Shown here: piece after piece, positions 448 through 56,600 of the stretch | Layout: every line of letters starts with the position of its first letter | How positions within the stretch are numbered: position 1 is the first letter of the stretch | IMG/VR virus record: IMGVR_UViG_3300011772_000022 | Span: 16,259-80,258 of that record | DNA from: a virus | Taxonomy: Duplodnaviria > Heunggongvirae > Uroviricota > Caudoviricetes | Direction: 5' to 3' (one strand) | Length of the DNA stretch: 64,000 bases | Made by a program: the position numbers and the translations under genes | Notes under the pieces: generated by a model | Database searches by the model: none | What the model was told of the DNA's origin: nothing | What the model saw: only the letters and a program-made list of their open reading frames with translations

Positions 448-531
448 ATCTTGTTCCTCCTTGTATGTGTTATATGTGTTATAACCTCTACCTTTATTAT
501 ACCCATCTCGGGGAAGATTGCAACCCCTTTT

Positions 532-1697: not shown

Positions 1698-1950
1698 CAG
1701 TTGTGTTACGGATATACCGTTTCCGTATACCCTCTTATAGTTTCCTATAAGCTCAGACTATATCTTCAGGTTTTACCTGCTCCCCGTTTCGAGTTCACTT
1801 GAACCCTACGTCTCTCGACTAGTCGTTGAACCTTCGTGTATAGGTGTCTCTCGACGACTATAGTTGCTTGGCTGCTGATTACCCTCGACTTTACGTTAGG
1901 GCTTCCCAGACAATTAGAGGAGTTTATAAAGGAGACCTAGTTGTTGGTTA
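1698..1950 (-). other. putative self-splicing group I intron interrupting polymerase motif A (boundaries approximate)
   Basis: The upstream ORF ends ..NWWMTVGDLTNN* (T7-like WVQAGID with the catalytic Asp). The downstream ORF resumes ..GQMELRMTAHL after a ~250-nt gap. Joining after the U of GAT-T and before TA-GGT (following an intron-terminal G) gives WWMTVGD-LGQ-MELR, matching DYSQIELR. ACTGTAGG is present at both junctions. Confidence 0.5.
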
Positions 1951-3481
1951 AATCTCCTACAGTCATCCACCAGTTACGCTGAAGCTCTTGGAATGCATCA
2001 CGAATCTTCCATTGGATTTCATAACCAGTATGTTCCGGAGTACCTTCGTCACATGGTTCGAACTCTTTATCTTTCTCATTGTATCTAACAGGAACAACCG
2101 TAAACATAAACGCTTTCTGGATTGCCACCTCTAAAGCATTCGGGTCATCCTTATGTTCCTCACGTAATGGGTCAACCACCTTGTCATATTCTTCAATTGT
2201 AATGAAGTCCTTGAAGATGGCGCCACTCGGTAGATTCTGAAGGTTCGGTCCAGATGACGATAGACGACCTGTAACCGTACCTGTTTGATGGAAGGAGCCA
2301 TGTACCCGACCATCAATATCGATTGCCTTGATGATTCCTTTTACGTAAGTAGATTCAGTCTTTTTCAGTTTACGATATTTCAAGATTAATTCGATAAGTT
2401 CTAAGCCTTCCATTGTCAGGTCAGCCAGTGTTCGTTCTTCCGCAGCTTCTCGACCCATTTTCAATAACTCTTTTAGTGTAGCAGCATCAACCTTAACTGC
2501 CCCCTTGTCCGTCTTCGCAATGATAGGAAGTTTCTTCTCGGCATGTAGTACCTCTGCTAATTGTGGTCCACTTCCAATAGAGAATTCGTGTCCGGCTAAA
2601 GCGAAGATTTGTTTCTCAAGGATATCCATTTCTTTTAAGCAGCGGGCACCGATTGCTTCCAGTACCTCTTGGTTAACAGGCATACCACGTCGTTCTATCC
2701 CTTGAAGTACCCCAACGAACGGCATCTCCACTCCGAATAGAACATCAATAAGTTTCTGCTTTTGTAACAACGGATAGTATTTGATGAACAGTTTAGCAGT
2801 CGCCACAATATCCATCAGTGCGTACGGTAAGGTTAATGTAGCTGAAGCCTCATGGAACCGAAGTTTCTTCCCGAGAATCTTATCGAGCTTATTCATATCC
2901 ATCCCAAGGTCTTCTTTCGCCACGTACTTCAAACCGAAACGTTGACGTTCTTCTTTTACGAGCCATGCCATTACCTGTGTATCAGCACAGGATGCTCTTT
3001 TTGGTAGCTCTTCAATATGTTTCGCCATTGCTTCTTTCGTTTCCGGAGCCACCCATTTCGGTACACATAATTTCGGTCGTAAATCAATACCAACATTCAA
3101 GAAGATATCAGCATCATATTTCAGGTTGTGGGCAATTATCATCTTGTCGAAGTCCAAGAAGAATTCCTTCAGTGCCTCTACAACCATTTTGCGATTTAAG
3201 TATCCAGTCGTTCCCACAACCTTCTCTTGGTCAAGGTGGTACATCGTTGGAATGTACGCCGCATATTCTAGTTTCGTAATGTCATCGTCGATAATACCAA
3301 TACCGATACCACAAATTTCTGCTTTTAAGAATGATAGGTCAGTAGTCTCTAAATCGTACACAATATATTTTGCTTTCTTCAGCCGTGCTAATAACCTTTC
3401 TAATTGCATATGATACACAAGGATATTCTCAGCGTAATCAGGTAATTCTCTTACAGGTCTCTCCAATACTGGTGCTCCCAT
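1951..3481 (-). CDS. DNA polymerase I family, exon 1 (3'-5' exonuclease motifs YDLETTDL, HNLKYD, YALMD; thumb/fingers ..TGRLSSSGPNLQNLP)
   Basis: Conserved Exo I-III and polymerase motifs. Start set to MGAPVLE (ATG 3479-3481) behind RBS AAGAGGAGGAAACGGAA. Confidence 0.8.
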
Positions 3482-5478: not shown

Positions 5479-5694
5479 TTATTCCGGGTTTCGAGCAATT
5501 GCGGCGTTTGCCCACATCATTGCTTCCTCAAGTTTCGTTTTAGCAAGTGATAACTCTCTTGAGGGTGGACATAGTGAATCTAGTGTCTGTGCTAAGAATT
5601 GGCATTTATTTCTTACCAATTCATGTGATTGTGCCTTATTTCCAGTTGGTGCATGATAAGCGAAGTTATTTTCATTTGACCCGATTGCCGCCAT
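5479..5694 (-). CDS. hypothetical protein (71 aa)
   Basis: RBS AAAGGGAGAGAAGCAAA before the ATG. Confidence 0.45.
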   Translation of the reverse strand: MAAIGSNENNFAYHAPTGNKAQSHELVRNKCQFLAQTLDSLCPPSRELSLAKTKLEEAMMWANAAIARNPE

Positions 5695-5748: not shown

Positions 5749-6060
5749 TTAACCGTTATTTTCAGCTTCTTCAAATTTTTCTGTTGCCTCTTCAAAAGCC
5801 TTGAACACCGCTTCTTTAAAACCATCAGGAATTGGTAACCCTTGTTTTAAATCGTAAGCATCCACTGTTCGTTTAATGGCTTTGATTTGGTCAGTTGAGT
5901 ATAATCGTCTTCCAGATTGCGCTCGATATGTTGCAGCAGGGATGATTCCGAGTCTTTCCCATTTGCGAATCGTTTGCCCTTGACGTTCTAGCTTATTAGC
6001 CAGTTCTCCGATAGTATGCAATTCGATGTCTTTACCACCTATAGTGTAGATTTTGCCCAT
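5749..6060 (-). CDS. MerR-family helix-turn-helix DNA-binding protein (start re-assigned to MGKIYTIG)
   Basis: YTIGELANKLERQGQTIRKWERLGIIP is a MerR-type HTH; RBS AAAGGAGGAAAGAAC before ATG 6058-6060. Confidence 0.55.
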   Translation of the reverse strand: MGKIYTIGGKDIELHTIGELANKLERQGQTIRKWERLGIIPAATYRAQSGRRLYSTDQIKAIKRTVDAYDLKQGLPIPDGFKEAVFKAFEEATEKFEEAENNG

Positions 6061-14905: not shown

Positions 14906-16249
14906 CTAAGAAAAGATGATTGACCCACTGTCATCGTCCTCCGGCTCATCCATAATAATGTCCTCTGCCAGTCGTCCGAAGTTTTTCGTATTTTCAAAGT
15001 CCCAATGAATAACAACGTTCGGCGTATTACCGTCACGAACAAGCATCAGGTTAATTCCCATTAAGTTCATCGCTCTCATCTCTTCATCACGGAATGGCTC
15101 AATAACCACATCCGAATCCTGTGCAAATGATTGTGCGAATGAGATTGTCGATTGGTCATTCGCTTTACCAACCTTACCAGTCTTCGCCGATAGCTGAGAA
15201 GATTGAATGATTGGTTTACCAGTCTTACGAGCAACACGTTTTAGTTTACGAGTAATGTTTGTAATCTTCTCCCACATTGCCGTTCCACCTTCTTCATCAT
15301 CTAAAAGGTAAGAACCGTCCACGATAACAAGGTCTGGATTGTATTCCTCAATCTTCGCCTGTACCGCTGATACACCATATCCATGTGAATCATCACCAGA
15401 GATAATGAAGTCACCAATGTCTTCATCTTTTAATGCATCCAGTCCGGCAAAGTATTCTTCCTTGTGTGTATCAGAAAGCATACCTTCCTTGTAATGCGTT
15501 GCATTCATCATGAAGTACAGAACATCGGCACGGGTTGCGATTTCATTGTTACCCATCTCTCGGGTAATGAATAAGACACGGAACCCTTGCTTGATTGCAT
15601 AGTTCGAAATTAGTACCTCAAGATACGTTTTACCTGTTTTCGGCATGGCAACAATGGAAATTAATTGCCCATCTTGAATTCCGCCCGTTGCTTTATCGAT
15701 TGGCTCAATACCTGCATAAGAGATACCAATAAGACCAAGACCATCTGCACGTTTGTTATATGCTTCTTTACGCTCTTCAACCTCCGTATTCCAGTGAAGG
15801 TCTTTTGCCACGTTTACTTCAGTTTGGATTTGTGACATCATACGAGTCAGAAGTTTTTCAGTTCCTTCCTCATCTTCCTTCTTCAGCAGCTCAACCGCCT
15901 GCATAATACCATCCGTCAGTTTCTCACGTTTACGTTTACGACGAACCTCTTTCATCCAATACGAAAGTGGCTCCACCGTGTCCGTTAATTTGAATCCCGG
16001 GAAGTATTGGTTAATGATTTCTAAAGATGCCGTCTTCTTATGTTCGTCATAATGTTCGAACAGGAAATGTGCCATCTGCTCTGCCACGGAACCGTCCTTG
16101 AAGAATACGTATCGGTATCCTCCCTCTTGTCGCTTCTCACGTTTTAGAATCTTGTTCTTCGTAAGCTCTCCTATTGCATTACCTCGGATTGCCTCCTTCA
16201 GGAGTTCCATCTCTTCACTCAGCCGTCTTTCTTCCATCATCTTGCTCAC
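14906..16249 (-). CDS. replicative DNA helicase (DnaB family)
   Basis: RecA-like core with Walker A AMPKTGKT, the FITREM motif, and an N-terminal DnaB-like domain. Confidence 0.8.
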   Translation of the reverse strand: MSKMMEERRLSEEMELLKEAIRGNAIGELTKNKILKREKRQEGGYRYVFFKDGSVAEQMAHFLFEHYDEHKKTASLEIINQYFPGFKLTDTVEPLSYWMKEVRRKRKREKLTDGIMQAVELLKKEDEEGTEKLLTRMMSQIQTEVNVAKDLHWNTEVEERKEAYNKRADGLGLIGISYAGIEPIDKATGGIQDGQLISIVAMPKTGKTYLEVLISNYAIKQGFRVLFITREMGNNEIATRADVLYFMMNATHYKEGMLSDTHKEEYFAGLDALKDEDIGDFIISGDDSHGYGVSAVQAKIEEYNPDLVIVDGSYLLDDEEGGTAMWEKITNITRKLKRVARKTGKPIIQSSQLSAKTGKVGKANDQSTISFAQSFAQDSDVVIEPFRDEEMRAMNLMGINLMLVRDGNTPNVVIHWDFENTKNFGRLAEDIIMDEPEDDDSGSIIFS

Positions 16250-16656: not shown

Positions 16657-17358
16657 TTAAACCCCTCCATATTGTTCTCGTATTCTTCTTGCTTCCTGTA
16701 TTTTACGCCAATCCGGAAATGAGGATTGGTCCTCAAAATATAGTTTAATCGTGTTGCCTTCAATTAAAGATGCAACGGATACACCATACGTTTGTGATAA
16801 CATCGTAAGGGAAGCATTTGTCGTAAAGATTGTGGGTAGTAATCGATTGGTACGGTAGCGAATCAGTTCATCAAATACAGATGGAGCTAGTTCGCTGCGC
16901 TCTGATTGGAACCCTTTACCTACATCATCGACAACTAAAAAATCGCTATTCTTCACTCGTTTATCGTACAGGTCTGCTTTGCCGGAATCATACCATGCTC
17001 CTGCATAGAGATTAATGATTCCTGCAAGGTTTGCGAATTGCGTTCGGAATCCCTGCCTGATAGCAGCCTTTTGGACCGATACGGCAAGGTGGGTTTTGCC
17101 CACCCCGTTCATACCGTATAAAAATATTCCAGTACCTTCTTTACGATGGGTACGGATTCTAGCCGCATAATCGACCAGAGTTTGTGCCGTTTCAAAACGT
17201 TTGGGAATGATTACTCCACTATTATCTCGTATAGGGAAAGTTCGAAAATCGGCGGGATAGTATTTTTCTAATATGCCATGTCTTCTTTGTGTTTTAGGTT
17301 CCAAAGGACCGAAGACGTCACTCCCAATTAAAGTTTCCAGTTCCGTCATTGCCATCAT
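16657..17358 (-). CDS. helicase loader, DnaC/IstB-like AAA+ ATPase
   Basis: GMNGVGKTHLAVSV Walker A; FLVVDDVG Walker B. Confidence 0.7.
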   Translation of the reverse strand: MMAMTELETLIGSDVFGPLEPKTQRRHGILEKYYPADFRTFPIRDNSGVIIPKRFETAQTLVDYAARIRTHRKEGTGIFLYGMNGVGKTHLAVSVQKAAIRQGFRTQFANLAGIINLYAGAWYDSGKADLYDKRVKNSDFLVVDDVGKGFQSERSELAPSVFDELIRYRTNRLLPTIFTTNASLTMLSQTYGVSVASLIEGNTIKLYFEDQSSFPDWRKIQEARRIREQYGGV

Positions 17359-18364
17359 TCTTTTTCACCTCTGGTTTGTACTCTCTCGCACTCGATTTCT
17401 TTTGTTTTGCCGCTGAAGGATTCAGCATTTGAGGGATTATCGTGTTTCTATAAGCAAAGAAAACACCGAAGTTAGGGTAACCCTCTGGCAAATACGTGAG
17501 TTGTTTGTAGTTTTGTAGATAGAAGTCAATCGCATCAGCAACCTGTTCTGGCTCATATGCCGTCAGCAAGTTCTTGCATTGTCCTCTGTCCTTGTTCGTT
17601 GAAGCCGGAGATGTAATCCCCAGTTCCAATTTATACATATGTCGGAAGTAGGCAACTAGATGATTCGCATTCCATTTGCTCCGTGGGAGGTCTTGGAATC
17701 CTTTACCTCGTTTGTCCTTCTTCGTCGGTTTTTCTTCTGGTGCATATAGTTCATCTAAAACGTTCGGGATATCTTCTTCCGCTACCTCGTTTGGTTTGTC
17801 GGAAGGCATAACCACTTTAATGTTCTTTAGTCGTTCTGTGTCATCGGTAAAACTCATATCAGGTTCCGCCTCTGTCTTTTTTTCCTGTGGCGGTTCAGGT
17901 ATAGGTTCTTGATTCGGCTTTTGCTTCGGCTCCGGAGGTGGCGGTGGTGTCATACCTTCCTGTGCGACCATGTAAACAGAGGTGTGATTCTCTCTGGTGT
18001 AACCACCAAATGAACCCTTCTTGGTACAGACCACATAACCATCATCCATTGCTCGTTTGACCCCATCACTACATGCAGGTCTTGATAAACCAGTTAGCTT
18101 TTCAAATTGCGACAGGGACACCGCATCTTCTTCCTTGTAGACGGGCGCCCCTGTATCTTGGTCAATATGGCTTACCCACCCGTAAGTTTTACGGAACAAT
18201 GCCAACAAGACCTTTAATTCAGATAAACTTTTAATGTTGGGTAATGCTTCATCGAAAAACTCGTTGGGTATTGAAGTAAACCCTTTCATGTCCAACCGTG
18301 GTTTAAATCCGTTAAATTTGTTTCCCTCTTCCATACGTTTCATCCCCCATGAATATAATGTCAT
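17318..18364 (-). CDS. putative replisome organizer / replication initiation protein (N-terminal DnaD-like HTH, Pro-rich linker)
   Basis: The N-terminus resembles the phage replisome-organizer domain; PPPPPEPK linker. Sits directly upstream of the DnaC/DnaB pair. Confidence 0.45.
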   Translation of the reverse strand: MTLYSWGMKRMEEGNKFNGFKPRLDMKGFTSIPNEFFDEALPNIKSLSELKVLLALFRKTYGWVSHIDQDTGAPVYKEEDAVSLSQFEKLTGLSRPACSDGVKRAMDDGYVVCTKKGSFGGYTRENHTSVYMVAQEGMTPPPPPEPKQKPNQEPIPEPPQEKKTEAEPDMSFTDDTERLKNIKVVMPSDKPNEVAEEDIPNVLDELYAPEEKPTKKDKRGKGFQDLPRSKWNANHLVAYFRHMYKLELGITSPASTNKDRGQCKNLLTAYEPEQVADAIDFYLQNYKQLTYLPEGYPNFGVFFAYRNTIIPQMLNPSAAKQKKSSAREYKPEVKKNDGNDGTGNFNWE

Positions 18365-27191: not shown

Positions 27192-28639
27192 TTCAAGTCT
27201 TCAGCTCTGAGAATGTGAAAGGTTGAGTCGCCCAAGTCTTCTGGAAATTCAATCGGAGGTGTGTCGATTGGAGGAAGAGAAGATTCGAACACCTCTCTGT
27301 CATATTGTACCCGCATTTCCTCCATATATTCATGTGCCTTCTTCGTAGATAAAAATGGTACCTGAACCTCCGTTGTTAGATGACCAGATTGCAGGATAGC
27401 CCGCCCGGGAATATTCGGATTCAATTTAGCAGCTCCATCCTCTTGTTCACCTAGTAAGATTCGAGAGTTCAATTCATTCCGTACCCTGAATGCAACCGTT
27501 ATCGGGATATTGGCTTTACTATCACCCGGAAGTACCTTTGCATCCGGACGTTGAGTTGCCACGAATAAATGTATCCCTAATGCTCTTGCTAATCGTAGCA
27601 GCCTGTTAATCATGGAATGGGTGTATTCTAAAAGGTCTTTGGCTTTCATCATTCCCTTAGGTGGAGCCGAATTACCTTTAGTAGGTACAATGTTCAATCC
27701 ATAGATATAATCCTGCAAGTGTTCCGGGATGTTCCATAGCTCACTCTTCCCTACGCTTTCTGGTGAGAGTTCCGCCAGTTCATCGATAACCAACAAAATG
27801 TATGGTAGGTGCCCGACTGCTTCACGATACTCTCGAATGTTTGTGACCCCTGCATTGTAGAAGTCAGCCTGACGTTTATCCATTTCGGCTTCCACCGTTC
27901 GTAGCACTTCAAATGCTGAGAAGGCTTCCTTTGAGATTTCCCTGACATGTGGAGCATTTTTAAATAATTGAAATTCAAGACCTCCCTTTAAATCAATCAT
28001 ATAAATTTCTAAGTCGGTCGGTGTCTTCAGTGACATGAGTGATGTAAGAGCCTGCCGTACGAATACGGATTTACCTCCACCAGTTTCCCCACCGACCAAG
28101 ATGTGTGGACGTTTACCTAAGTCAACAATCTGTAAACCTTTCTTGCTCTCTCCTATAATGATAGGAAGTTCCATTCCTTCGGCTCCATCAAATCGTCTCG
28201 TGCTGAAAGTTTCTTGATGTTTTAAATGACCAGTTGAAATTTCCATTACGCAATACTCATCCTCCTGATACGTTCCAATCTCGGCATTGAGGTTTAGTTC
28301 AATAGCCGGAAGTTTACGGTTAATATCATCGATAGACATACCTGCGGGAAGTTTAAAATAGGCTTTGTATAAATAGTCCTCCTTTCTCTCCTCTTTTATA
28401 TAAGAAGGCGTGTATCTTTTGGTCTCACCTAAAAGCGGTTTGTGTTCCTTGTATAATCCGAATGACTCCCAGTTGTTAGCCAAGCGATAAGTTAACGGTG
28501 ATTTGAAGCGGTGGGTCTGATAAATTTTAAACCCCGCATAAGATGTTAAAGCAATGCCACCAACCTTAAATACATTTGCACCAACAATTTTCATAGCGGT
28601 TCCCAATACCGCCGGAGTAAGAATACTCATCAGTCCCAC
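27167..28639 (-). CDS. FtsK/SpoIIIE-family DNA-translocase-like ATPase with an N-terminal membrane anchor
   Basis: N-terminal hydrophobic segment; Walker A VGGETGGGKS; Walker B LLVIDE; the conserved ATQRP motif of the FtsK family. Confidence 0.75.
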   Translation of the reverse strand: MGLMSILTPAVLGTAMKIVGANVFKVGGIALTSYAGFKIYQTHRFKSPLTYRLANNWESFGLYKEHKPLLGETKRYTPSYIKEERKEDYLYKAYFKLPAGMSIDDINRKLPAIELNLNAEIGTYQEDEYCVMEISTGHLKHQETFSTRRFDGAEGMELPIIIGESKKGLQIVDLGKRPHILVGGETGGGKSVFVRQALTSLMSLKTPTDLEIYMIDLKGGLEFQLFKNAPHVREISKEAFSAFEVLRTVEAEMDKRQADFYNAGVTNIREYREAVGHLPYILLVIDELAELSPESVGKSELWNIPEHLQDYIYGLNIVPTKGNSAPPKGMMKAKDLLEYTHSMINRLLRLARALGIHLFVATQRPDAKVLPGDSKANIPITVAFRVRNELNSRILLGEQEDGAAKLNPNIPGRAILQSGHLTTEVQVPFLSTKKAHEYMEEMRVQYDREVFESSLPPIDTPPIEFPEDLGDSTFHILRAEDLNEKEDHSE

Positions 28640-28640
28640 C

Positions 28641-28838
28641 TCACAAGAATAAGTTTAATACAGGTAACATGAAGGCAACCTCTTTGGCTAGAATGTACCA
28701 AAGAATCGTAATGGTACCAACCCGAATCCATTTGACAAGTTTAGTCTTATTCTGGGTGATAGCAAATTTCTCACCAAGCCATCCTCCGAATATTGCCCCA
28801 GAACCTTTTGCTACGATAATCGATATTGTCTCAACCAT
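28641..28838 (-). CDS. small membrane protein (65 aa, 2 TM helices)
   Basis: Hydrophobic; immediately upstream of and coupled to the FtsK-like gene. Confidence 0.45.
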   Translation of the reverse strand: MVETISIIVAKGSGAIFGGWLGEKFAITQNKTKLVKWIRVGTITILWYILAKEVAFMLPVLNLFL

Positions 28839-28936
28839 GTCTATCCTCTCCTTATGGACAAGTTTGTTATACCCATATACTCTAGGTAGCCTCCGGCGAT
28901 TTTTCGTTAGGAAAAATCCGTTACCTAGAGTATATG

Positions 28937-29236
28937 CTATGAGGTTGCCTGTGTTACGTAAGGGACAGGTTCCTCATCAGAATGGGCTTCACCTTGAAAG
29001 TGCCCCTCCATTTCCATGTACATTTCTTGCAGCTCAACTGCTTCATTAATTAACAGGCTTACATATAATCGGTATTTATCGGAAGTTGTTGGCATGAGTT
29101 CTGGTTTTGTTGCTAAATCCTCCTTCAATTTCTTGATTGTCTTCAGTGCCGTATCGATGTTCTTATCGTACGCTTGAAACCATTTTAAATCTTTATCAGT
29201 ATATGAAGTATGCATTCTAAAATCTCCGCCTTTCAT
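28937..29236 (-). CDS. hypothetical protein (99 aa)
   Basis: ORF. Confidence 0.45.
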   Translation of the reverse strand: MKGGDFRMHTSYTDKDLKWFQAYDKNIDTALKTIKKLKEDLATKPELMPTTSDKYRLYVSLLINEAVELQEMYMEMEGHFQGEAHSDEEPVPYVTQATS

Positions 29237-29241
29237 CCTAG

Positions 29242-29382
29242 TTATTTATTAGTCTTTTTAACGGTAGCAATTGCTCTCCGATTGACCCATACCTGCGTTA
29301 CCTTTCCTGCTTCGAACATGACCCTGAATTCCGCCACCTTCATTAGGTCATCAAGGATTGTAATTTTCGTTGGTTTATTCAT
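29242..29382 (-). CDS. small hypothetical protein (46 aa; below the track cutoff)
   Basis: RBS ATAGGGGAGATTGACG before the ATG; MNKPTKITILDDLMKVAEFRVMFEAGKVTQVWVNRRAIATVKKTNK. Confidence 0.3.
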   Translation of the reverse strand: MNKPTKITILDDLMKVAEFRVMFEAGKVTQVWVNRRAIATVKKTNK

Positions 29383-29496
29383 CGTCAATCTCCCCTATCA
29401 TTCTGGTGTGTTTTGTTTCTTAGTCTAATATATGTTATATGTGTTATTTAATGTCTGTCCGGACCTGAACTATTTAATTTTCTGCACAACGAAAAA

Positions 29497-29523
29497 AGAC
29501 ACCCTATCGCAAAGTGTCTTTTT
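29497..29523. terminator. bidirectional rho-independent terminator (AGACAC..GTGTCT flanked by an A-run and a T-run)
   Basis: gaaaaaagacaccctatcgcaaagtgtctttttaag. Confidence 0.55.
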
Positions 29524-29958
29524 AAGATGAACTTATTTAGAAAGAGGACGACTTATGAAACGGAATCCATAAGCAGTCAGATATACAAGTGGTGAGTAGG
29601 CACCTGTATGTCATGATTCAAGTTTAGGATGAAGCTGCATTATACCCCATTGGAAGAAATCCCATAGAAAAGAGTTACCCTTAGGAATATTATACTATGA
29701 ATTCGTTTTATTGCCAACATTTTCTTGTATGAGCCTTACGAATTTTCGCTCCTCTTCCTTTACCTGTTCAATCATTCTTTGAAAATACTTATCTGGCAAT
29801 TCGTATTCCCCCTCAGTGTTTTGTTTTACAGTATATGAGTTAGTAGACAAGTTTATTCATCCTTTCGTTTTGTAATGGATGGACAACCTTCTTGTACCAT
29901 ACATTCCGCCGAGTCTCGCCCCAAGGCGAAGGGAGCGGAATGTATGCTTTCTATATAC

Positions 29959-30435
29959 CTATGACGTGACTAGTAAGTAGGTGAATACGACTCCTGTAAG
30001 GACAAAGATGACAGCCTCAGATATTTTCCCTGTTCTATATGTGATAGGTGCTTTGTATTTCTTTTTACTAAATGGTGCAAGTAAGGGTACCCCTGATTTG
30101 GAGAAGTAATCCCCTAGTATATGAGAGGCGTATCCGAATATTAATCCCGCCGAAAAGGATAATGGTAATACAATTGCGGGGATTAATGCTAATGCTCCTA
30201 CGATTAATGTACACGGAATGGAATGAGTGAATCCTCGATGACCACATAATTTATTAACCAATTTGGATATCGGTTTTAATCTTCTTCCTATATAAGAATT
30301 AGGATGGTCAATGTCAGGTAATGTTGAACCTAAAATCACTCCGCCGTAAAACCCAATCGAGAATGGGGCATTTGCTACTCTCATTACTCCTTGCGCCAAG
30401 GTAACCGATGTAAGCATATGAGTTTGATACAACAT
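29959..30435 (-). CDS. YdjM/DUF457-family membrane-bound metal-dependent hydrolase
   Basis: Multi-TM with HRGFTHS and HILGD motifs; RBS AAAGGTGGGATTTTT before the ATG. Confidence 0.6.
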   Translation of the reverse strand: MLYQTHMLTSVTLAQGVMRVANAPFSIGFYGGVILGSTLPDIDHPNSYIGRRLKPISKLVNKLCGHRGFTHSIPCTLIVGALALIPAIVLPLSFSAGLIFGYASHILGDYFSKSGVPLLAPFSKKKYKAPITYRTGKISEAVIFVLTGVVFTYLLVTS

Positions 30436-30484
30436 AAAAATCCCACCTTTCTACAGTATAGTCAGAAGGGTAGGATTTAACACC

Positions 30485-30563
30485 GCAATCTTTAGTTTAT
30501 TTATAGCTTTATATTGTTAGTTAAAATTCTTAACCTCATGTGGTAAAGAATCTTTACCTCATT
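30485..30563. repeat. conserved ~78-bp intergenic element, copy B
   Basis: gcaatctttagtttatttatagctttatattgttagttaaaattcttaacctcatgtggtaaagaatctttacctcat; same orientation as copies A and C. Confidence 0.8.
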
Positions 30564-30843
30564 CACTCTTTTTGTGTATCTCACCTGTCATCGTTATTTC
30601 CCAGATAGTCGGTTGAATCAAGAAATAATATTCAGGTGTCGCAAGCGGATTCGGTATGCATTTAGTACGCAGAGTCCATTTGATTGAATAGTTATCAAGA
30701 GGGACACCTTTATCTTCGAAGTATCCCGTAATGGCATGTTGCATCCGATTTGTTTCTAGATGTATCTGGTCATCCGTCGGTGCCTCAGTGCATCCCCATC
30801 TGGTCGATAACATTGCGCTGCTACCTATGAATTCATCTCTCAA
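30559..30843 (-). CDS. hypothetical protein (94 aa); its 3' end overlaps repeat copy B
   Basis: ATGA coupling with the upstream gene supports it, but the C-terminus runs into the repeat. Confidence 0.35.
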   Translation of the reverse strand: MRDEFIGSSAMLSTRWGCTEAPTDDQIHLETNRMQHAITGYFEDKGVPLDNYSIKWTLRTKCIPNPLATPEYYFLIQPTIWEITMTGEIHKKSE

Positions 30844-31199
30844 AAGTCATCTTCCTTTCGTGGTTCATTATCTGTATACACCGTAGCGCATAACATAAAG
30901 CGAATAGGGAGTAGTGATTCGTAGCGTAGTTCGCTTGAAACGAATTCCGGTACATCATCTTCAGGGGCATGTTTCTTATACATGAAATCACCAAGGAATA
31001 AGTTAAGGTGGGTACGTCTCCTGCCATCCGTTCTAAAATCCGTGAATGCTATCATAAGTTCATGCTTCAATGCGTGTTTTATACTATCTATGAATCGTGG
31101 GTCGTCTCCATGTAATGCTAATGCTTCTCGGCTTACATCTCTATACGCCGTTAGGGTCTCAATTTTCTCAACTGCTTTCAGGTCATCTCGTCTTTTCAT
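30840..31199 (-). CDS. hypothetical protein (start re-assigned to MKRRDDL)
   Basis: RBS TAGGAGGAGAAAGAGG before ATG 31197-31199. Confidence 0.45.
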   Translation of the reverse strand: MKRRDDLKAVEKIETLTAYRDVSREALALHGDDPRFIDSIKHALKHELMIAFTDFRTDGRRRTHLNLFLGDFMYKKHAPEDDVPEFVSSELRYESLLPIRFMLCATVYTDNEPRKEDDF

Positions 31200-31220
31200 C
31201 CTCTTTCTCCTCCTATAGAA

Positions 31221-31245
31221 AAAGCAGACAATTAAGTCTGCTTTA
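31221..31245 (-). terminator. rho-independent terminator (AAAGCAGAC..GTCTGCTTT plus TTTCTATAGG on the minus strand)
   Basis: aaagcagacaattaagtctgcttt overlapping the stop of 31243..31539. Confidence 0.45.
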
Positions 31246-31539
31246 CTTTTGTAGTTTGGTAATCTCTCTTGTATCATGACGTAAGCTCAAGTTCGGTTCC
31301 TTCGCAATCGGAATATTATACTTCGCACGAATCTCATTCCACCATGCTTCATCCTCTTTCATAAGTTCAGCACGTTGGTCTTCAATCTGCTTCAGCATAT
31401 CGTTGTTCGCTTTACGTCTGTAATTAATAGCGATAATTTCCTTTAGTTCACCCTTACTAATAACCGCAAGAGTTTCTACAGAAGTGTCAGGACCGTTACC
31501 TAAATCCATGCCGATAATTTCTTTTTTCTCTTCAGCCAT
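31243..31539 (-). CDS. hypothetical protein (98 aa)
   Basis: ATGA-coupled to the SPFH gene. Confidence 0.45.
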   Translation of the reverse strand: MAEEKKEIIGMDLGNGPDTSVETLAVISKGELKEIIAINYRRKANNDMLKQIEDQRAELMKEDEAWWNEIRAKYNIPIAKEPNLSLRHDTREITKLQK

Positions 31540-32420
31540 TACTTCTTCACCTCACCTTTCAATAATTCGCTTGGCATGTTAATGATTGAGCTTCCACCAC
31601 TTACAAGCGGTTGCTTACCATCCCATTTCTTAGCGATTTCATAGTTGATGATGTCAGGAGATAATGATTGTTGTAACTCTTTATTGGCTTTCGCTTCACC
31701 TTGAGCAGCGATAACCTTTTTATCTGCCTCACCTTGAGCCTCTGCACGTTTCTTATCGGCTTCAACCTTAGCAGTTTCTAATGCTACCTTCATAGTTTCT
31801 TGTGCCTGTTGAGCATCTACTTTCGTATTGATTGCTTTCATAGCACCTTCGTCAGGTCGGATTTCACCAAGTGTAAATTTCTCAAGGTTGATACCATCTA
31901 CCTTTAATCGTTTTGCTAGGTTGTCCTGTACCTGTGTTTGAATCTCACCACGTTTTTCACCATATACTTCTAAAATGCCATATTTAGACGTTACTAATTG
32001 TATTGCATCCTGAAGTTGAGATTTGATATATGTTGCTTCAATCTGTTCTGAGGTTTGACGTTTGAACTTCGTGAAGATGTGTGGCAGCTTTGAAGCCTCC
32101 ATATTGTACGAATACATCACATCCAAGTTCACTGGCTTACCTTCAGAAGTGGATACGTTTAATGAATGGTCTTCATCTTTCGTCTTCTTTAGGTATACAG
32201 TTTCAGTCGATACCGGATAAGCCGTTACTGACTTCCACGGTAGAACAGGTTTCAAACCTTGTCCGAGTGTTTCTTCTTCGAGTCCACCCATCTTATTGTA
32301 TACAACACCTGCATACCCCGGGGTAATTTGTACTGAGCAAGCAGCGAATCCTCCGACCGCCAATGCAATTGTGCCACCGATTACGGCAGCGCCTCTTTTC
32401 CAAGTTTTAAATGGATTCAT
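31539..32420 (-). CDS. SPFH/band-7 (stomatin/prohibitin/HflKC-like) membrane protein
   Basis: N-terminal TM helix, SPFH domain, and a long Ala/Gln/Glu/Lys-rich coiled-coil (KVDAQQAQETMKVALETAKVEADKKRAEAQGEADKK). Confidence 0.75.
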   Translation of the reverse strand: MNPFKTWKRGAAVIGGTIALAVGGFAACSVQITPGYAGVVYNKMGGLEEETLGQGLKPVLPWKSVTAYPVSTETVYLKKTKDEDHSLNVSTSEGKPVNLDVMYSYNMEASKLPHIFTKFKRQTSEQIEATYIKSQLQDAIQLVTSKYGILEVYGEKRGEIQTQVQDNLAKRLKVDGINLEKFTLGEIRPDEGAMKAINTKVDAQQAQETMKVALETAKVEADKKRAEAQGEADKKVIAAQGEAKANKELQQSLSPDIINYEIAKKWDGKQPLVSGGSSIINMPSELLKGEVKK

Positions 32421-32562
32421 CCTTCTTTTCCTCCTCGTCCTCTTTTGAGATTCGAGGGGTTAGAAGATTCTTAGTCTTTTCTCCTACAACCTCGCCGAAA
32501 AATTTGGATAATACCCACCACAAACAAATCGCAGAAATGATTATAAATAGAATCCAAGCCAT
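32407..32562 (-). CDS. small membrane peptide (start re-assigned to MAWILFIII), coupled upstream partner of the SPFH gene
   Basis: RBS GAGAGGTGGTGAGAAGAAA before the ATG; one TM helix plus an acidic tail; overlaps the SPFH start. Confidence 0.4.
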   Translation of the reverse strand: MAWILFIIISAICLWWVLSKFFGEVVGEKTKNLLTPRISKEDEEEKKDESI

Positions 32563-32969
32563 TTTCTTCTCACCACCTCTCGTCCTAATACCTATTATAA
32601 GATGTATTAGCAAATATTACAAGACATAAAAAAGAAACCTACCACATATAATGATAGATTCCTCTTTTAACTTAATTGTGTATCGCCTTTAGGCTTTTGA
32701 TTTTTTGGTTTTTTGGGTGTAACACATCGACGTGCGACGAAGGATAAAGGTCTATGCTAATCTATAAACCAAAGATGCGGTACGGTTCTTAGCTCCACCG
32801 TGGAGAAATACGTTATCCTGCGTATCCAAACCTCCTAGTTGCGTTAAGAGGTTTCATAGAGATGAGTAAAGAGGGTTCAGTACCCTCTAACTCATGCAAT
32901 TATCGCCGCATGGGGTCGTTGTAATTACAAACTAATTGTACCACATATTTCCTGCCTGTACAATCCCTA

Positions 32970-32998
32970 TAGACAACGGTTCTTCCAACCGCTATAAT
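32970..32998 (+). promoter_or_regulatory. sigma-A-type promoter for the HNH gene: -35 TAGACA, 17-bp spacer, -10 TATAAT
   Basis: tAGACAacggttcttccaaccgcTATAATga, about 20 nt upstream of the HNH ATG. Confidence 0.5.
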
Positions 32999-33015
32999 GA
33001 AATAAAATATGTAGG

Positions 33016-33543
33016 ATGGAGGAACACAAGTTGGCTTCATGGAATATTGGTGACCAAGTATTTTATTTTACTATCTTAGAAAAAACAAATGAAAAGAAAA
33101 GAGGGTATTATCTTTTTAGAGCAAGATGTGTATGTGGAAAAGAAGAGTTAATTCACAAAGGACAGATATTCCCAGACAGAAAAACATCATGTGGTTGTAT
33201 TCGACATAACAAATTAGTGGCAAGAAATAAGTCACATGGTCTTTCTAAACATCCGTTATACGCTCGATGGAAGCAAATTCGTAATCGATGTCACAATCCT
33301 AATTCAGATAAGTACATATTCTATGGAGCAAGAGGTATCGAGATGTGTGAAGAATGGAGGTCGAACCCACAAGCGTTCTTTGATTGGTATTTGAGTAAAA
33401 CAGATGACCTTTCATTAACCGTAGACCGTAAAGATAATAATGGTAATTATGAACCTGATAATTGTCGTCTCATTACCATACAGGAACAACAAAGAAATAG
33501 GAGACCTCGTTCCTGTTATAGAAGAGAAAAGGATGCTCAGTGA
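33016..33543 (+). CDS. free-standing HNH homing-endonuclease-like protein (only plus-strand gene in the window)
   Basis: SKHPLYARWKQIRNRCHNPNSDKYIFYGARGIEMCEEWRSNPQAFFDWY is the phage HNH_3/AP2-type endonuclease signature; it has its own promoter and terminator. Confidence 0.75.
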   Translation: MEEHKLASWNIGDQVFYFTILEKTNEKKRGYYLFRARCVCGKEELIHKGQIFPDRKTSCGCIRHNKLVARNKSHGLSKHPLYARWKQIRNRCHNPNSDKYIFYGARGIEMCEEWRSNPQAFFDWYLSKTDDLSLTVDRKDNNGNYEPDNCRLITIQEQQRNRRPRSCYRREKDAQ

Positions 33544-42000: not shown

Positions 42001-43248
42001 CTAGTAATAGTTAAATTGGTCTCGACCGTCAAAGAATGGAGCGTTTGATTCGTACCATAATTGAATCTCTTCCGCCGAGAATGTTTTAGATGGATGTATC
42101 GCCAAGTGTTCAAATAATGTATTTGGAGTTAACCCGGTATCGTCCCATCCAATTCGCATATACTTCATTGTGTAGTCAGAAAGGATATCTGTTTTGGCAG
42201 CTGCAATTAGCGTTCCATTGAAATAGACCTCTTTGTTATTTCCATTCGCCATCCCTTGTTTATCCCACTGAATAACAACGTGACACCAGTTACCAACATT
42301 TGCGTAAGTGCTGATAATCTGAGGGAATTGTAAGTCATGATTTGTAAATGTTTTATCAGCATTTGTCTTTCGTGTCCAGAAGTTAAGTCGCCTAGCACCA
42401 TTCATCATGAAGTTGATTGTATCTCCATAAATTGCTCCACTATTATCAGGTCTGTTTGTCCCGAATTTTACGGTGTACACATTGTTACCTGATTTTGCAT
42501 TGAAGAACGAATCAGTCAGATACATCCAGAATGATGCACAACCTCTGTCTTTCATGTTTAATTGGGAAACATCCCAAGTCGCACTAAGAGTCGGTCGATT
42601 ATCTTTTACGTAAGACGTACTAAATTTCAGCTCTTCTAACTGTGGGTGCCATACATAACAAGGTGTAGTAGTCCCTGCGAAACCACCTGCCCACATAATA
42701 GCCCGTACCGCCGTCCGAGTATTTGTAGCAGTGAAGATACACGTTACATCATAACGTTTCCACTCTACTGACACATCGAAGGTTGTCGAGGTTGCTTCTA
42801 CGTTATTGGTATCTTGAACCTTAACAGTCACCTTAGAGGGTACATCCGAACGTAACCATACAGATAGTGTAAAAGGTCGATTCGCTATAGCAGTTGTTGC
42901 ATAGTCCGTATATAAATCCTGACTAATAGCGGTTGGACTAATCTTAAAAGCGGTTTGCCCACCTTCAGGGTCTAGATGACCTTTTGTTACTGTCGATACC
43001 GCCATACCTGTCCATTTCGTTAAGTCCTCAGGAAAGGGAATTAGGTTTACGGTACTTCTATCGATTGCTAGAGATTCACGGAATTTCTTTTCATCCTTTC
43101 GATATACCTCAGGTCCCGTCGAAAGAATAGGAATTGTATCTGTCGTATCTCGCAATGTTCCTGCTAATGGAAATAAGAACATTCCAGTTGGTAGATTTGG
43201 AGCATGTTTTTGCAGTTGCAAAAATGAACCATCATGAGCCATTACCAT
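42001..43248 (-). CDS. LamG/concanavalin-like tail protein, paralog 2 (start re-assigned to MVMAHDG)
   Basis: RBS AAGGTAGGTGATTTTAGT before the ATG; C-terminal EEIQLWYESNAPFFDG. Confidence 0.5.
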   Translation of the reverse strand: MVMAHDGSFLQLQKHAPNLPTGMFLFPLAGTLRDTTDTIPILSTGPEVYRKDEKKFRESLAIDRSTVNLIPFPEDLTKWTGMAVSTVTKGHLDPEGGQTAFKISPTAISQDLYTDYATTAIANRPFTLSVWLRSDVPSKVTVKVQDTNNVEATSTTFDVSVEWKRYDVTCIFTATNTRTAVRAIMWAGGFAGTTTPCYVWHPQLEELKFSTSYVKDNRPTLSATWDVSQLNMKDRGCASFWMYLTDSFFNAKSGNNVYTVKFGTNRPDNSGAIYGDTINFMMNGARRLNFWTRKTNADKTFTNHDLQFPQIISTYANVGNWCHVVIQWDKQGMANGNNKEVYFNGTLIAAAKTDILSDYTMKYMRIGWDDTGLTPNTLFEHLAIHPSKTFSAEEIQLWYESNAPFFDGRDQFNYY

Positions 43249-43288: not shown

Positions 43289-43370
43289 GCAATCTTTAGT
43301 TTATTTCTCTTTATATTGTTAGTTAAGATTCTTTACCTCATAGAAGTAAAGAATCTTTACCTGATATAAC
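43289..43370. repeat. conserved ~78-bp intergenic element, copy C (tandem palindromes GTTAAGATTCTTTAC / GTAAAGAATCTTTAC)
   Basis: gcaatctttagtttatttctctttatattgttagttaagattctttacctcatagaagtaaagaatctttacctgat. Confidence 0.8.
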
Positions 43371-43375
43371 CAGAA

Positions 43376-44590
43376 TTATCCATATATGATGGAATAATCG
43401 TATGGGTCATACATGCGTTTTCCATAGGCAAACCACGTTGAAATCTCGTAATCTGGTACAACTCTCGGACAAATTAATAGGTCGGCATATTTCGCCCTAC
43501 TATCTTTTAGCTCAACGAACTCTACTATTCCAAGTTTCGTGATAATGTTACCTGTCCAGAAGACACCATTTCGATAGAATCGGAAAGCATTCTCCGCAGC
43601 TGAGAACGTAATCGTTAACATTTCCCACTCGCCCGGAACAAATTTCTTTGTCGAAATCAAGTCCGTATATTGGCGGGAGCCAGAAGCATTACTCCCAAAG
43701 TCAGCAATTAATCTTCTGTTCGATACGTCATCAGTTGTTGGATTGTATCTCCATAACTTCAACATCGCCGTACCTGTATCTTCCCCGAAGCTAATGATTC
43801 GAGAGTAAGAATTCTGTCCAAGTACATTCTCATTAAAGGAAATCCAAAAGTTAATCGTGAAATCTTTCGGGGGAAGTAGCTCTTTCGGATACTTAACATG
43901 CCCTGTTTTTTGAGTAGTTTCTGTGAATTCCGTTAATGTACCTTCTTCAAGTTTTGCTTTACGTAAGTACATGTAAGACACATTCTTCAGCTTTAACGAC
44001 TCATCACCCGGAATCATTAGGTCTAACGCACGTACCGTCGTAACACCTTCAGGCATGGTGAATGTTGCTGATGCTCGATACCATCCGTCCTGTAAAGGAA
44101 CAACCTTTGCATCAAGAATGTTATGCCCAATGTTTGTTAGGAAGAAAGAAATATTCATCTTTCCGGGTTGGTCACCATCAGTACGAAATTCGACACTCTC
44201 TGTATACGTTTTTCCTGCAACAACTGGAAATGCTTTAGCAACTGTATACTCAGTTCGAACCGTTCCATCAGCAGTTATCATTGGGATACGAACCGTTCTA
44301 AAACCGTCCACCATTCCAAGGTCCTCAGCATTAGATTGGTCTTTATTTGGGTAGTACCCATAAACAGAAAGTAGATGATTTTCAGGGAGCATGTTTGTTG
44401 TTTGCTCCTCGATTGCTACGACCTTTCCGAATCTTGGGTCCGGAACCATTAGTGCCGTATTCACATCTGGATGGATTCCTCTTGCCGAAGAAGTGTGCCA
44501 ATAAAACGGGAATAAAACGTCTTCGGAATTGACAGGGAGAATAATATCTCCCGCCATTCCTAAGGGTGAACCATAATGTGATTTATTCAT
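43376..44590 (-). CDS. LamG/concanavalin-like tail protein, paralog 3 (404 aa)
   Basis: FTINFWISFNENVLGQNSYSRIISFGED... jelly-roll; C-terminal ISTWFAYGKRMYDPYDY. Confidence 0.5.
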   Translation of the reverse strand: MNKSHYGSPLGMAGDIILPVNSEDVLFPFYWHTSSARGIHPDVNTALMVPDPRFGKVVAIEEQTTNMLPENHLLSVYGYYPNKDQSNAEDLGMVDGFRTVRIPMITADGTVRTEYTVAKAFPVVAGKTYTESVEFRTDGDQPGKMNISFFLTNIGHNILDAKVVPLQDGWYRASATFTMPEGVTTVRALDLMIPGDESLKLKNVSYMYLRKAKLEEGTLTEFTETTQKTGHVKYPKELLPPKDFTINFWISFNENVLGQNSYSRIISFGEDTGTAMLKLWRYNPTTDDVSNRRLIADFGSNASGSRQYTDLISTKKFVPGEWEMLTITFSAAENAFRFYRNGVFWTGNIITKLGIVEFVELKDSRAKYADLLICPRVVPDYEISTWFAYGKRMYDPYDYSIIYG

Positions 44591-53604: not shown

Positions 53605-56600
53605 TTAGTTACCTTGACGGTTTCCGTAGTTACGGATATTCTCAATTTCCATCATCTTCTTGAACTTCTCGAACAATTGTCTTGCTCCCTTATCTGTCTC
53701 AGCAGGGTCAGATAGGTTGTCTACGTGGATTTGAACCGCTCCTTGAGCAAATGTAATAGTCGTTGCTCCTCCGCCTTGTCCAGAGCCTTGTGGAGCTTCT
53801 GATACAGGTGTCGGAACAGGCATTGGGATTGCAACCTTTCTAGGAGAACTAGACCCCGCACTTAAAGCTGATTCGACAGAAGAGTCTCCTTCACTCATAC
53901 GTTTCTTCATAGCCGTAATAAAGTTGTCAGAGGAACCCATAATGCTTCGAGCAAATTGTGCCTCACTCTTAGTAAGAACCATTTCACCACCATGAAGACG
54001 AGCAACATAATCGTCCTTTGGAACTTTATAAAGACCAGTACGGTGACCCATAAGACCACCAATGAAATCTCCTGCTGCTCCGATGCCATCACCTACAGTT
54101 TTAACAACCTTAGTAACCGTTTGTACGATTGGGTTGTTCATAACGTAAGATTTAGCATCGTCCCAAGCCGATTTAATAGGAGCGAATAGGTCAGCTAAAT
54201 ACGCCTGAGCATCGGATACCATGCTATTGAACGCATCTACCGCCCATTGTTTCGTATTTTCCCAAGCCTCTTGAGCCTTTTGAACAATCCAGTCCCAGAT
54301 TGCCTGTAATAATTCTTGACCGCTAGTTACCATATAGTTCCATGCATCTGTTGCCATTGTTTTAGCAGTTTCCCACACCCAAGGTAATGCAGTACCAGTA
54401 ATCCAGTTCCACAAGTTACCTAAGAGAGTCATACCGTCAGTACAAATCCAATTCCATGCATCTGCCGCAAGTGTCTTCGCAGTTTCCCAAACCCAAGGCA
54501 TTGCCGTTCCTGTAATCCAATTCCATAAGTTTCCTAGAATTGTCATACCATCCGTGCAAATCCAGTTCCAAGCATTTGAAGCTGCCGTTTTCACCCATTC
54601 CCAAGCAGCCGCAGCCCATATAGGAAGGTTGTTCCAGAATTGACCTAACAGTGCAACACCGTCAGTACAAATCCAGTTCCACGCCGCCGAAGCTACGCTT
54701 TTTACCCATTCCCAAGCCTGACCTGCCCAGATAGGAAGGTTGTTCCAGAATTGTCCTAGTAATGCGACACCCTCTGTGGAAATCCAAGTCCAAGCATTTG
54801 AAGCAGTAGTTTTAATCCACTCCCAAGCGGTAGCCGCTCCTGCTTTAATAGAATCCCAGTTTGAGAATATCATGCTGATTGCATCCCAAGCTAAGAGCGC
54901 CCAACCTACGATAGGGATTGCTCTCATTAGACCTTTACCTACTAAGGAAAGACCCATCATAAGACCTTTACCTAACATACCTCCGGCTTTCGGTCCTAAC
55001 AGTGCGAATCCTTTTAGTAAGCTACCACCTACTTTACCTCCGGCTCCAAACATCTTACCTACACCAGAGAACATCTTACTTACAATTCCGCCACCTGCTC
55101 TCGCCGTAGTTGCGCCACCTCTAGATGCTGCACGAGTTAATCCTGCCGCTGCTCCGCCTGCTCTTACTGCACCACCCGCACCTGCACGAGTTGCCGCTCC
55201 TGCACCACCACGAACTGCTCCACCTGCTGCAACCCTAGTTCCTGCACGAGCCGCTTCTTGACGTTGGAATGAGCTAAAAGGCATCATCATTGATGTATTA
55301 CCTGCAACCCCCATACGTTGTGAACGGTTTTTAGAACCAACCACTGCTGCTTTAATACTTCTAGCCCAGTGACCTTTACGTTGACGGGAATCCGTGTAGT
55401 TCATTCCTGCATCGACGAAGTTTCTAGCATTCATGTAACGTCTACGTTGAGCCATCGTTTGCCTAGCCCCACGAGTTGCGTTACCGATACGACCCGGAAT
55501 ACCCATGATAGAAGCACCGAATCCTTTCACCTTGTTCCATGCATTAGAAGGACCACTACGTACAGAAGGAGGAATACTTCTTGTAACTGCTTGTCGAGCG
55601 CCACCCATTTTCTCACGCATCGTACGAATTGGAGAGAATAAGAAGTCACGTAAGCCACCAGTGTATCGATTCTGTCCTCGGACTCGACCGTTCGCATCTG
55701 ATAATGTGTTATGTCCACGTCTTGTACGGATACGGTTTTGCATGTTTCCATTTCGAGTAATTTGACGGTCAGGTAGATATTGGTCACCTCTCCATAAACG
55801 CTGCATGAAACCTTTGAAACCTTGGTTACGAACACGTCTAGATGATTCACCATTTCTACCTTGTCTTGCTAACGTCCCGCCTTGTCCGTAAACAATACGG
55901 CGGTTACCATTCTCATCTCGTTCAACACGAGTATTTAATCGAGTATGGAGACCTTCGTTTCTACGACGTCTTGCTCTATCATTAACATCCATCGCACGGT
56001 TATAACCACCCGCAGCACGTCTTCTATCAGCCTCAGGAACAAGTAATCTAGCAGCACCTCGACCAGTAGCTCTAGCACCACGACCGACCATGCCCATCAT
56101 TCCACCTTGACGGTAGCTATCTCGCATTCCTCGACCCATCTTACCTACGCCGCCCATTAATTTACCCATTAACTTCAATGGAGCAAGAGCAGTACGAATT
56201 GCTTTTGACCATAGGAAGATTGCGCCTCGAATTGCAAGAGCAAGACCTAATGCAACACCGAGATTTTGACCCATCGCTTTGAATCCTGTTGCGTTGTCGT
56301 CAATGCCATCGAAGAACCCAAGAGCTTTAGATAATTCTAAAAGTTTTTCTTTCACCCAACCTAGTATTTCTACCAGAGGAGAAACAAAGACTTTCAGCAT
56401 CTCGAATCCATCTTTCAGACCACCAATGAAGCCATCCCAGAACTGCTTAACGTTTTCAATAGCGTGTACAATGCTGATAAACGATTGGTCTACACCAACC
56501 ATTTGCATTTGTTGCATATTGACAACGTTCTTATTGTCGCCCTTGTCTGTACTATAGTAATCTTTTAAAGATTTCTTCAAGATTTGTGCTTTAACAATCG

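Follow-up and report, generated by a model that had tools for sequence, protein, structure and literature searches.

Five dispersed intergenic elements as candidate minimal lambda-type origin modules in a ~107-kb myovirus of Bacillota

Phage replication origins are mostly unknown outside a few models. In lambda, unwinding and in vitro replication require as a minimum two iterons together with the adjacent AT-rich tract (PMC7466680, citing Dodson 1986 and Wickner & McKenney 1987). Phage SPP1 has a second, intergenic origin (oriR) among its late genes with a repeat-plus-DUE layout (PMC6316719), and gp38 at oriR has been proposed to act as a fork roadblock that triggers the switch from theta to sigma replication (PMC6316719, PMC3485210). 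The large Bacillus phage SPbeta carries SPBRE, a short conserved element found in about ten intergenic regions and bound by MrpR (PMC10516654). In T4-type phages, the conserved intergenic repeats known as PeSLs lie at indel and replacement junctions between close relatives (PMC2839356, PMC4122927). Here we describe an intergenic element of ~74 bp, present in five copies in a large phage genome, which by analogy with lambda we read as a minimal origin or initiator-binding module, with a probability of roughly 0.6.

Five copies of the element and their genomic setting

The stretch of DNA analysed here (the window, 64,000 nucleotides) has a GC content of 41%, and nearly all of its genes lie on the minus strand and are preceded by strong Gram-positive Shine-Dalgarno sequences. 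Its gene content is that of a large myovirus (sheath, tube, tape-measure, baseplate, GH25 lysin and SPP1-type holin) accompanied by a replication module; the phage is a myovirus and its host belongs to the Bacillota. Exact-protein matches placed the window on contig 622 (86.5 kb) and contig 2365 (20.2 kb) of Logan run SRR1749594, from which we infer a genome of ~106.6 kb (~107 kb) with a circular map joined via the contig ends. The closest named phage is Bacillus phage BCD7 (TerL 45% identical), in which both the O-like initiator and the palindromes described below are absent. DNA similarity searches among the INPHARED phages, using positions 28000-33000 and the element as queries, gave no meaningful match, and no close relatives were found in IMG/VR with the C-terminal exon of the DNA polymerase or with YdjM as query.

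The first-pass annotation had reported a 78-bp repeat family in this DNA. We confirmed it by repeat finding and MAFFT alignment, which recovered three copies in the window with unrelated flanks. The genome has five copies in total (A-E), every one of them intergenic and co-oriented. The copies, and the parts of copy B, are the following:

789-861 (core; repeat 789-865), minus strand: copy A, after the DNA polymerase gene
30486-30559 (core; repeat 30487-30563), minus strand: copy B, reading iteron 1, 7-nt spacer, iteron 2 and A-rich tract on the coding strand
43290-43362 (core; repeat 43290-43366), minus strand: copy C, between two Laminin_G_3 tail-fibre paralogs
~190-260 bp past the high end of the window, co-oriented: copy D, after the major head gene
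L340 1-62, outside the window, co-oriented: copy E, inside which contig 622 begins
30542-30558, no strand assigned: iteron 1 of copy B, a perfect 17-bp palindrome (GGTAAAGAATCTTTACC, 0 mismatches)
30520-30534, no strand assigned: iteron 2 of copy B (GTTAAAATTCTTAAC, 3 mismatches to the consensus), adjoining the A-rich tract
30486-30518, minus strand: A-rich tract of copy B (coding strand AACAATATAAAGCTATAAATAAACTAAAGATTG), the proposed DNA-unwinding region

Each element contains two palindromes of 15-17 bp (GGTWAAGAWTCTTWAC) whose centres are 23-24 bp apart, and in every copy the coding strand reads AGGTWAAGAWTCTTTAC, 5-7 nt, GAGGTWAAGAWTYTTAAC and then TAACAA(T/A)A..AAAG...AAACTAAAGATTG. The A-rich tract downstream of iteron 2 is ~35 bp long with ~20% GC, and carries at matching offset the motif AACAAAAGAAAGAG in copies A and E and AACAATATAAAG in copies B, C and D. 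A Shine-Dalgarno sequence and an ATG follow 11-52 nt downstream of each copy; in copy A, the Shine-Dalgarno sequence of an 81-aa Zn-ribbon gene (532-777) directly follows the element. When searched with at most three mismatches, the palindrome GGTAAAGANTCTTTACC occurs five times in the window (0.29 expected; 0 of 100 shuffles reach five) and is confined to the elements. Besides the elements, we detected no iteron-like clusters in the 83.6 kb of readable genome.

The gaps between the five copies are 23.1, 20.9, 12.8, 29.7 and 20.1 kb, which is more even than random points (P about 0.01-0.025) if the circular map inferred from the contig ends is assumed. One end of contig 622 lies inside copy A (window ~811-837) and the other inside copy E (L340 position 1), and these two copies have an identical 30-mer in common. 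Short-read assemblies of the phage break at these repeats, which is explained by the repeat copies themselves. The cumulative GC and AT skew curves rise monotonically, a result of all genes lying on the same strand, and do not inflect at the elements; GC skew is uninformative.

On the coding strand, scans for consensus promoters and terminators gave no match within the elements, and no Rfam family was found there. A contig scan with the invariant 17-mer CAATCTTTAGTTTATTT returned chance matches in unrelated taxa only, IMG/VR scans with two element-specific composite patterns returned 0 matches, and a literature search for the iteron sequence returned unrelated primer matches only. A weak sigma-A-like pair, TTAACT-N17-TAAACT, overlaps iteron 2. 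Elsewhere in the window, a near-consensus sigma-A promoter (TTGCAA-N16-TATAAT) is present at 496-523 (minus strand), just past the Zn-ribbon gene that follows copy A, and comparable strong promoters stand before the PhoH gene and at ~29717. Promoters of canonical host type thus occur elsewhere, unlike the weak hexamers of the element.

Several other features of the genome were recorded. The sole Rfam match in the window is a group I intron (RF00028, 80.7 bits, E=6e-19) at 1734-1991 (minus strand), which splits the family-A DNA polymerase gene and lies between ORFs 1937-3481 and 946-1689. The relative MTEU01003794.1 (see below) has an HNH endonuclease ORF (L323 1859-2335) at roughly this place between the polymerase parts, within a segment of ~457 nt that has no alignable counterpart in the window. 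On one side of copy E (L340 1-62; L324 76-2382) are a TGT/DpdA-like gene of 302 aa and three small ORFs, and on the other is a protein of 200 aa whose match is to the C-terminal part of PHROG 887 (queuine tRNA-ribosyltransferase). Gp021 of Bacillus phage BCD7, which has the same annotation, is ~757 aa long and by length alone could cover both parts. The genes around copy E suggest a 7-deazaguanine DNA-modification pathway. A 71-aa protein at 5479-5694 (minus strand) has a precomputed Pfam match to Acb2_Tad1_hairpin (anti-CBASS/Thoeris sponge fold) and is adjoined by a MerR-like protein of 103 aa (5749-6060). The 1605-aa tape-measure gene contains tandem repeats of 111-114 nt (64-75% identical) at 54319-54853 (minus strand). 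Outside the window, the intergenic region upstream of the large terminase (L243 ~800-1250) is rich in short direct repeats (ATATATAACAT at 24-bp, CACACCCCGAC at 28-bp and AGAGGCAGTGA at 22-bp spacing) and could be a pac site or a regulatory region.

Conservation in a close relative and the copy B locus

Using an element-specific pattern in a metagenome scan, we found exactly one other contig, MTEU01003794.1 (107,890 bp). It carries five copies orthologous to A-E, identical in number and positions to those described above. The element cores of the two phages are identical at 285 of 293 positions (97%), compared with 77-94% identity in the colinear flanks. Copy C is identical to its ortholog at all 73 positions, with flanks at 85-87%, and copy B at 70 of 74, with all four differences at palindrome centres or in the spacer. 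Across the elements, most differences are found either at the central, unpaired base of a palindrome or in the spacer between the palindromes; the exception is the A-rich tract of copy A, which has one substitution and a 1-nt deletion. As judged from these alignments, the conservation pattern is that expected for dimer-binding sites and reflects purifying selection. Orthologs are 95-100% identical and thus closer than paralogs (82-91%), which indicates that the copies are old, already existed before the two phages diverged and are each under constraint of their own. Individual half-sites change between GTAAAG and GTTAAG independently of one another, which argues against a requirement for hairpin pairing.

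The same comparison showed that rearrangement breakpoints coincide with the element at some copies only. At copy B, identity rises from ~56% (unalignable) over the 300 bp upstream to 93% on the downstream side, and the switch falls exactly at or inside the element; since all four differences of this copy are in its upstream half, a recombination joint is placed at or inside copy B. At copy A, one 78-aa gene found in MTEU01003794.1 only lies immediately upstream of the element. Colinearity is unbroken across copies C and D, where the flanks to either side have similar identity. The four comparable copies thus yield a single sharp junction plus one indel next to an element, and the block between C and B is not a discrete swapped unit. 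This block (12.8 kb from C to B) had been described as holding all the accessory, lysis and fibre genes. A tail-fibre paralog, an XkdV-like protein, the GH25 lysin, the SPP1-type holin and Band_7 are indeed inside, but the block does not extend to the second Laminin_G_3 paralog (43376-44590) or to other baseplate/fibre genes, which are found upstream of C.

The two Laminin_G_3 tail-fibre-like paralogs flanking copy C (42001-43248 and 43376-44590, minus strand) have a short DNA repeat in common (42402-42433 and 43728-43759). The only convincing gene on the opposite strand is at 33031-33543 (plus strand, 170 aa, good Shine-Dalgarno sequence), where ~610 bp are swapped for ~24 bp in MTEU01003794.1; it looks like a moron-type indel beside the holin gene.

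Copy B is surrounded by the following features:

30559-30843, minus strand: 94-aa gene with a TTG start, a TTGA overlap with the upstream stop, and a TGA stop (30559-30561) that abuts the element
30436-30474, minus strand: stable hairpin (~-14.7 kcal/mol) with TTTTT after it, in the interval from copy B to the YdjM ATG
29959-30435, minus strand: YdjM-like hydrolase gene (PF04307 and PHROG), with the same neighbour in the syntenic L339

The first-pass annotation had the last codons and the stop of the 94-aa gene running into the second palindrome. The stop codon does touch the element, but the last codons lie outside the palindrome: with the TGA at 30561-30559, exactly one stop-codon base overlaps the core of copy B, and the overlap amounts to 3-5 bases if the wider element coordinates of that annotation are used. 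In MTEU01003794.1, the TAA stop of the ortholog falls within AGGTAAAG. Doubts as to whether the ORF is real were dispelled by a full-length diverged ortholog at the same position in that relative (90 aa, end-to-end alignment, 27% identity, E=7e-12). The TTGA start/stop overlap with the preceding gene is present in both phages, and the ORF is also in the public gene call; on these sequence comparisons, it is a genuine, fast-evolving gene. The proposal that its C-terminus was remodelled by insertion of the element is at most trivially true, as the edge of the element supplies or abuts the stop codon and the rest of the protein is not element-derived. Nor is the element a recent insertion at this site, because the distant syntenic relative L339 already has iterons there. 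On the other side, copy B precedes the YdjM-like hydrolase gene, as had been annotated. The intervening hairpin, identical in MTEU01003794.1, contains and sequesters the YdjM Shine-Dalgarno sequence and may terminate or attenuate transcription where the late/lysis operon ends.

The O-like initiator family and its palindrome arrays

The replication module of the phage is encoded in the order initiator, DnaC/IstB-like loader and DnaB helicase:

17318-18334, minus strand: lambda-O-like replication initiator, 338 aa (PHROG 678 'replication initiation O-like', 4.5e-18)
16657-17358, minus strand: DnaC/IstB-like helicase loader (domain match)
14906-16240, minus strand: DnaB-family replicative helicase (domain match)

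The initiator scores 25.1 bits against PF04492, under the cutoff of 28.7; its full-length homologs carry PF04492, and tblastn matched it to annotated replication protein O genes. Within the initiator gene, we found no palindrome site with at most three mismatches and no internal array, and the linker of the protein is rich in P, E and K, without KESLP-type repeats.

When IMG/VR was scanned motif-first, many contigs proved to carry GTAAAGAnTCTTTAC in arrays of 3-5 copies spaced 22-24 bp apart. Each of these arrays lies within an O-like gene whose product starts with a wHTH domain and which a DnaB helicase follows, as in the ori-inside-O arrangement of lambda, and some of the array-bearing wHTH proteins resemble the window ORF 17318-18334. 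Because a motif-based choice of loci would be circular, the association was tested on 80 IMG/VR viral loci picked solely by similarity to the wHTH domain of the initiator. Clusters of the palindrome GTAAA[GA]AnT[CT]TTTAC were present in 60 of these 80 loci, inside the initiator gene and 80-400 bp past the wHTH part, whereas none of the 120 unrelated loci used as controls (0.89 Mb) had one. An S-R/K-P motif in the region of the recognition helix is common to the window initiator and to initiators with GTAAAGA arrays; P0012 has SLG in its place and different iterons (CTCTAAAnTTTAGAG).

After the last iteron of 38 distinct in-gene arrays follows a tract that starts with ACAAAAGA and contains 53% A, against 27% upstream, with a GC content of 24%. 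The A-rich tract of the element agrees in polarity and in its ACAAAAGA start with the in-gene origins and with L335 and L339, and the A-rich tract of copy B matches those found 3' of the last iteron in the in-gene origins.

L335 and L339 encode initiators that are 40-51% identical over their full length to that of the window, and they too lack an in-gene array. In L335, three CTCTAAAATTTAGAG palindromes followed by ACACAAAAGAAATAAAA (the A-rich stretch after the three iterons is also given as ACAAAAGAAATAAAA) are intergenic and located 1.4 kb upstream of the initiator gene, and the recognition motif is SLG instead of SRP. L339 has the gene order lysin, YdjM, FtsK-like and initiator in common with the window. 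Just upstream of its YdjM gene, the position of copy B is occupied by a terminator, by three GGTWAAG..CTTAAC palindromes spaced at 36 bp and by a ACACAAAATAAATAA tract, which suggests that the copy B position is an old origin site in this phage group. In L244, a 105-kb IMG/VR contig whose initiator wHTH is 48% identical, no iterons were found within the 6.3 kb examined. Since specificity varies within the initiator family (L335), binding by the window protein is suggested by the family correlation together with the common recognition motif.

Candidate origin modules, alternatives and likeness to known systems

Building on the anatomy of the elements, the family-wide link between initiator and palindrome, the purifying selection and the synteny, all observed here, we consider the ~74-bp elements to be probable minimal lambda-type origin or initiator-binding modules. 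By analogy, dimers of the O-like initiator (17318-18334) would bind the paired inverted-repeat iterons, and the bound initiator would open the A-rich tract, downstream in the direction of transcription, as a DNA-unwinding region; the DnaC-like loader and the DnaB helicase would then be recruited. The origin would lie outside the initiator gene, its ancestral site being copy B at the late/early junction upstream of YdjM, and would have been copied from there to four further intergenic sites, giving five co-oriented and roughly evenly spaced modules. All five may fire as multiple origins. Alternatively, one module, perhaps B alone, would fire and the others would serve as initiator-bound roadblocks or sinks, as proposed for SPP1 oriR. 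The conserved islands could double as joints for homologous recombination, compare the junction at B. With only two iterons per module, against 3-5 in relatives, one feature of the elements counts against origins.

All copies lie immediately upstream of genes, and A, D and E run straight into a Shine-Dalgarno sequence, which would also suit a promoter or leader cassette. In such a cassette, the pair ~TTAACT-N17-TAAACT would act as a regulated promoter with its start in AAAGATTG and two operators over the -35, so that five transcription units are switched by the initiator itself or by another phage protein such as the MerR-like 5749-6060, analogous to the SPbeta element bound by MrpR. The intergenic position of the five copies, their co-orientation with transcription and the start codon 11-52 nt on would fit, as would the terminator-like hairpin ahead of copy A and the terminator ahead of the iterons in L339, and dispersed intergenic operators are already known from a Bacillus phage in the case of SPBRE (PMC10516654). 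We nevertheless regard a promoter as unlikely. The hexamers match at 8 of 12 positions and fall under the scan threshold in all copies, the spacing is 19 nt in B, and the -10 of D is GAAACT, starting with G, in both phages; in L339 and L335 the hexamers are not kept, whereas the iterons and the A-rich tract are. A hairpin and T5 stand between B and the YdjM ATG, near-consensus sigma-A promoters are used elsewhere in the genome, and the genes downstream are not of one temporal class (head-tail, fibre, recombination/nucleotide metabolism and DNA modification). Moreover, the same palindrome and A-rich tract occur inside the initiator genes of dozens of phages, where no promoter is expected.

The sharp mosaic junction at or inside B, the confinement of the differences of this copy to its upstream half and the one-gene indel abutting A would fit a recombination linker or mobile cassette boundary, with homology patches shuffling gene blocks in the manner of PeSLs (PMC2839356, PMC4122927), or a MITE-like element. 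Such a primary function seems very unlikely to us, since the junction is absent at C and D, copy number and positions are the same in two phages, and homology patches alone leave the conservation of the palindrome arms and the link to O-like initiators unexplained. An alignment of the nine copies with their flanks showed neither terminal inverted repeats nor target-site duplications, and paralogs that are only 82-91% identical argue that the element did not spread recently. Rather than being the function of the conserved islands, a role in recombination is more likely a side effect of them. An element acting in RNA, whose two palindromes fold into a long hairpin in polycistronic mRNA as an RNase III site or mRNA stabiliser, is highly improbable. 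Palindrome 1 can pair with palindrome 2 (~-18 kcal/mol; z-scores of -3.4 in B and -4.1 in C), and in copy D palindrome 2 is the exact reverse complement of palindrome 1. The z-score for A is only -1.7, however, an Rfam match is absent, and in A, B and E the palindromes are off mutual complementarity at 2-3 of 15 positions while each is self-symmetric. We rejected the long hairpin for this lack of consistent complementarity; it would also leave the conserved A-rich tract and the arrays in initiator genes unexplained.

Initiator-binding origin modules remain our preferred reading, and they yield a testable rule for the O-like initiators, a large family that crosses phyla: GTAAAGAnTCTTTAC followed by an A-rich tract starting ACAAAAGA would mark the origin, which would permit its annotation in many phage and prophage genomes. 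The phage described here would represent a lineage in which the origin has moved out of the initiator gene and now exists as five copies at regular spacing. A wider proposal, that the phage replicates from or organises its genome around five even, co-oriented minimal origins served by one O-like initiator, the origin having escaped the initiator gene and been copied round the genome, with the modules doubling as control points for forks and transcription and as recombination joints, is tentative and in our view somewhat doubtful. If true, it would give a ~107-kb phage a multi-origin layout like that of eukaryotes or archaea. Should the modules fire or bind the initiator, they would offer a simple system for multi-origin replication, for titration or roadblocks (the SPP1 oriR idea) and for the coupling of replication and transcription.

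Among the described systems, PeSLs consist of an early promoter and a stem-loop terminator, are numerous and flank single-gene cassettes, whereas here only one or two of four comparable copies are at a junction and the repeats are initiator iterons. SPBRE is likewise a short intergenic element repeated in a large phage, but its copies are 15-bp operators located in promoter regions, where a repressor of recombinase fold binds and maintains lysogeny, and it has neither an A-rich tract nor a link to a replication initiator. SPP1 is similar in having more than one initiator-binding origin per genome, each made of repeats and an AT-rich DUE, and in its module order of initiator, loader and DnaB-type helicase. 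It differs in that oriL is inside gene 38, the sites are two rather than five and the repeats are direct. The initiator (17318-18334) had Pfam and PHROG matches to O-like families only, and none to the gp38/Phage_rep_org_N family, so that the resemblance to SPP1 is functional and organisational only. Unlike the origin of lambda, the modules lie outside the initiator gene, contain two iterons rather than 4-6 and are dispersed in five copies with a different iteron sequence; a DnaC/IstB-like loader and a phage DnaB stand in place of lambda P and the host DnaB, and the genome is that of a ~107-kb myovirus with a Bacillota host. Like the origin of lambda, they are linked to an initiator with an O-like wHTH N-terminal domain, their iterons are inverted repeats of 15-19 bp placed ~23 bp apart, and the A-rich tract is downstream of the iterons in the direction of transcription. 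Two iterons and an AT-rich tract, as in each of the five elements, would correspond to the minimal functional ori-lambda unit (PMC7466680).
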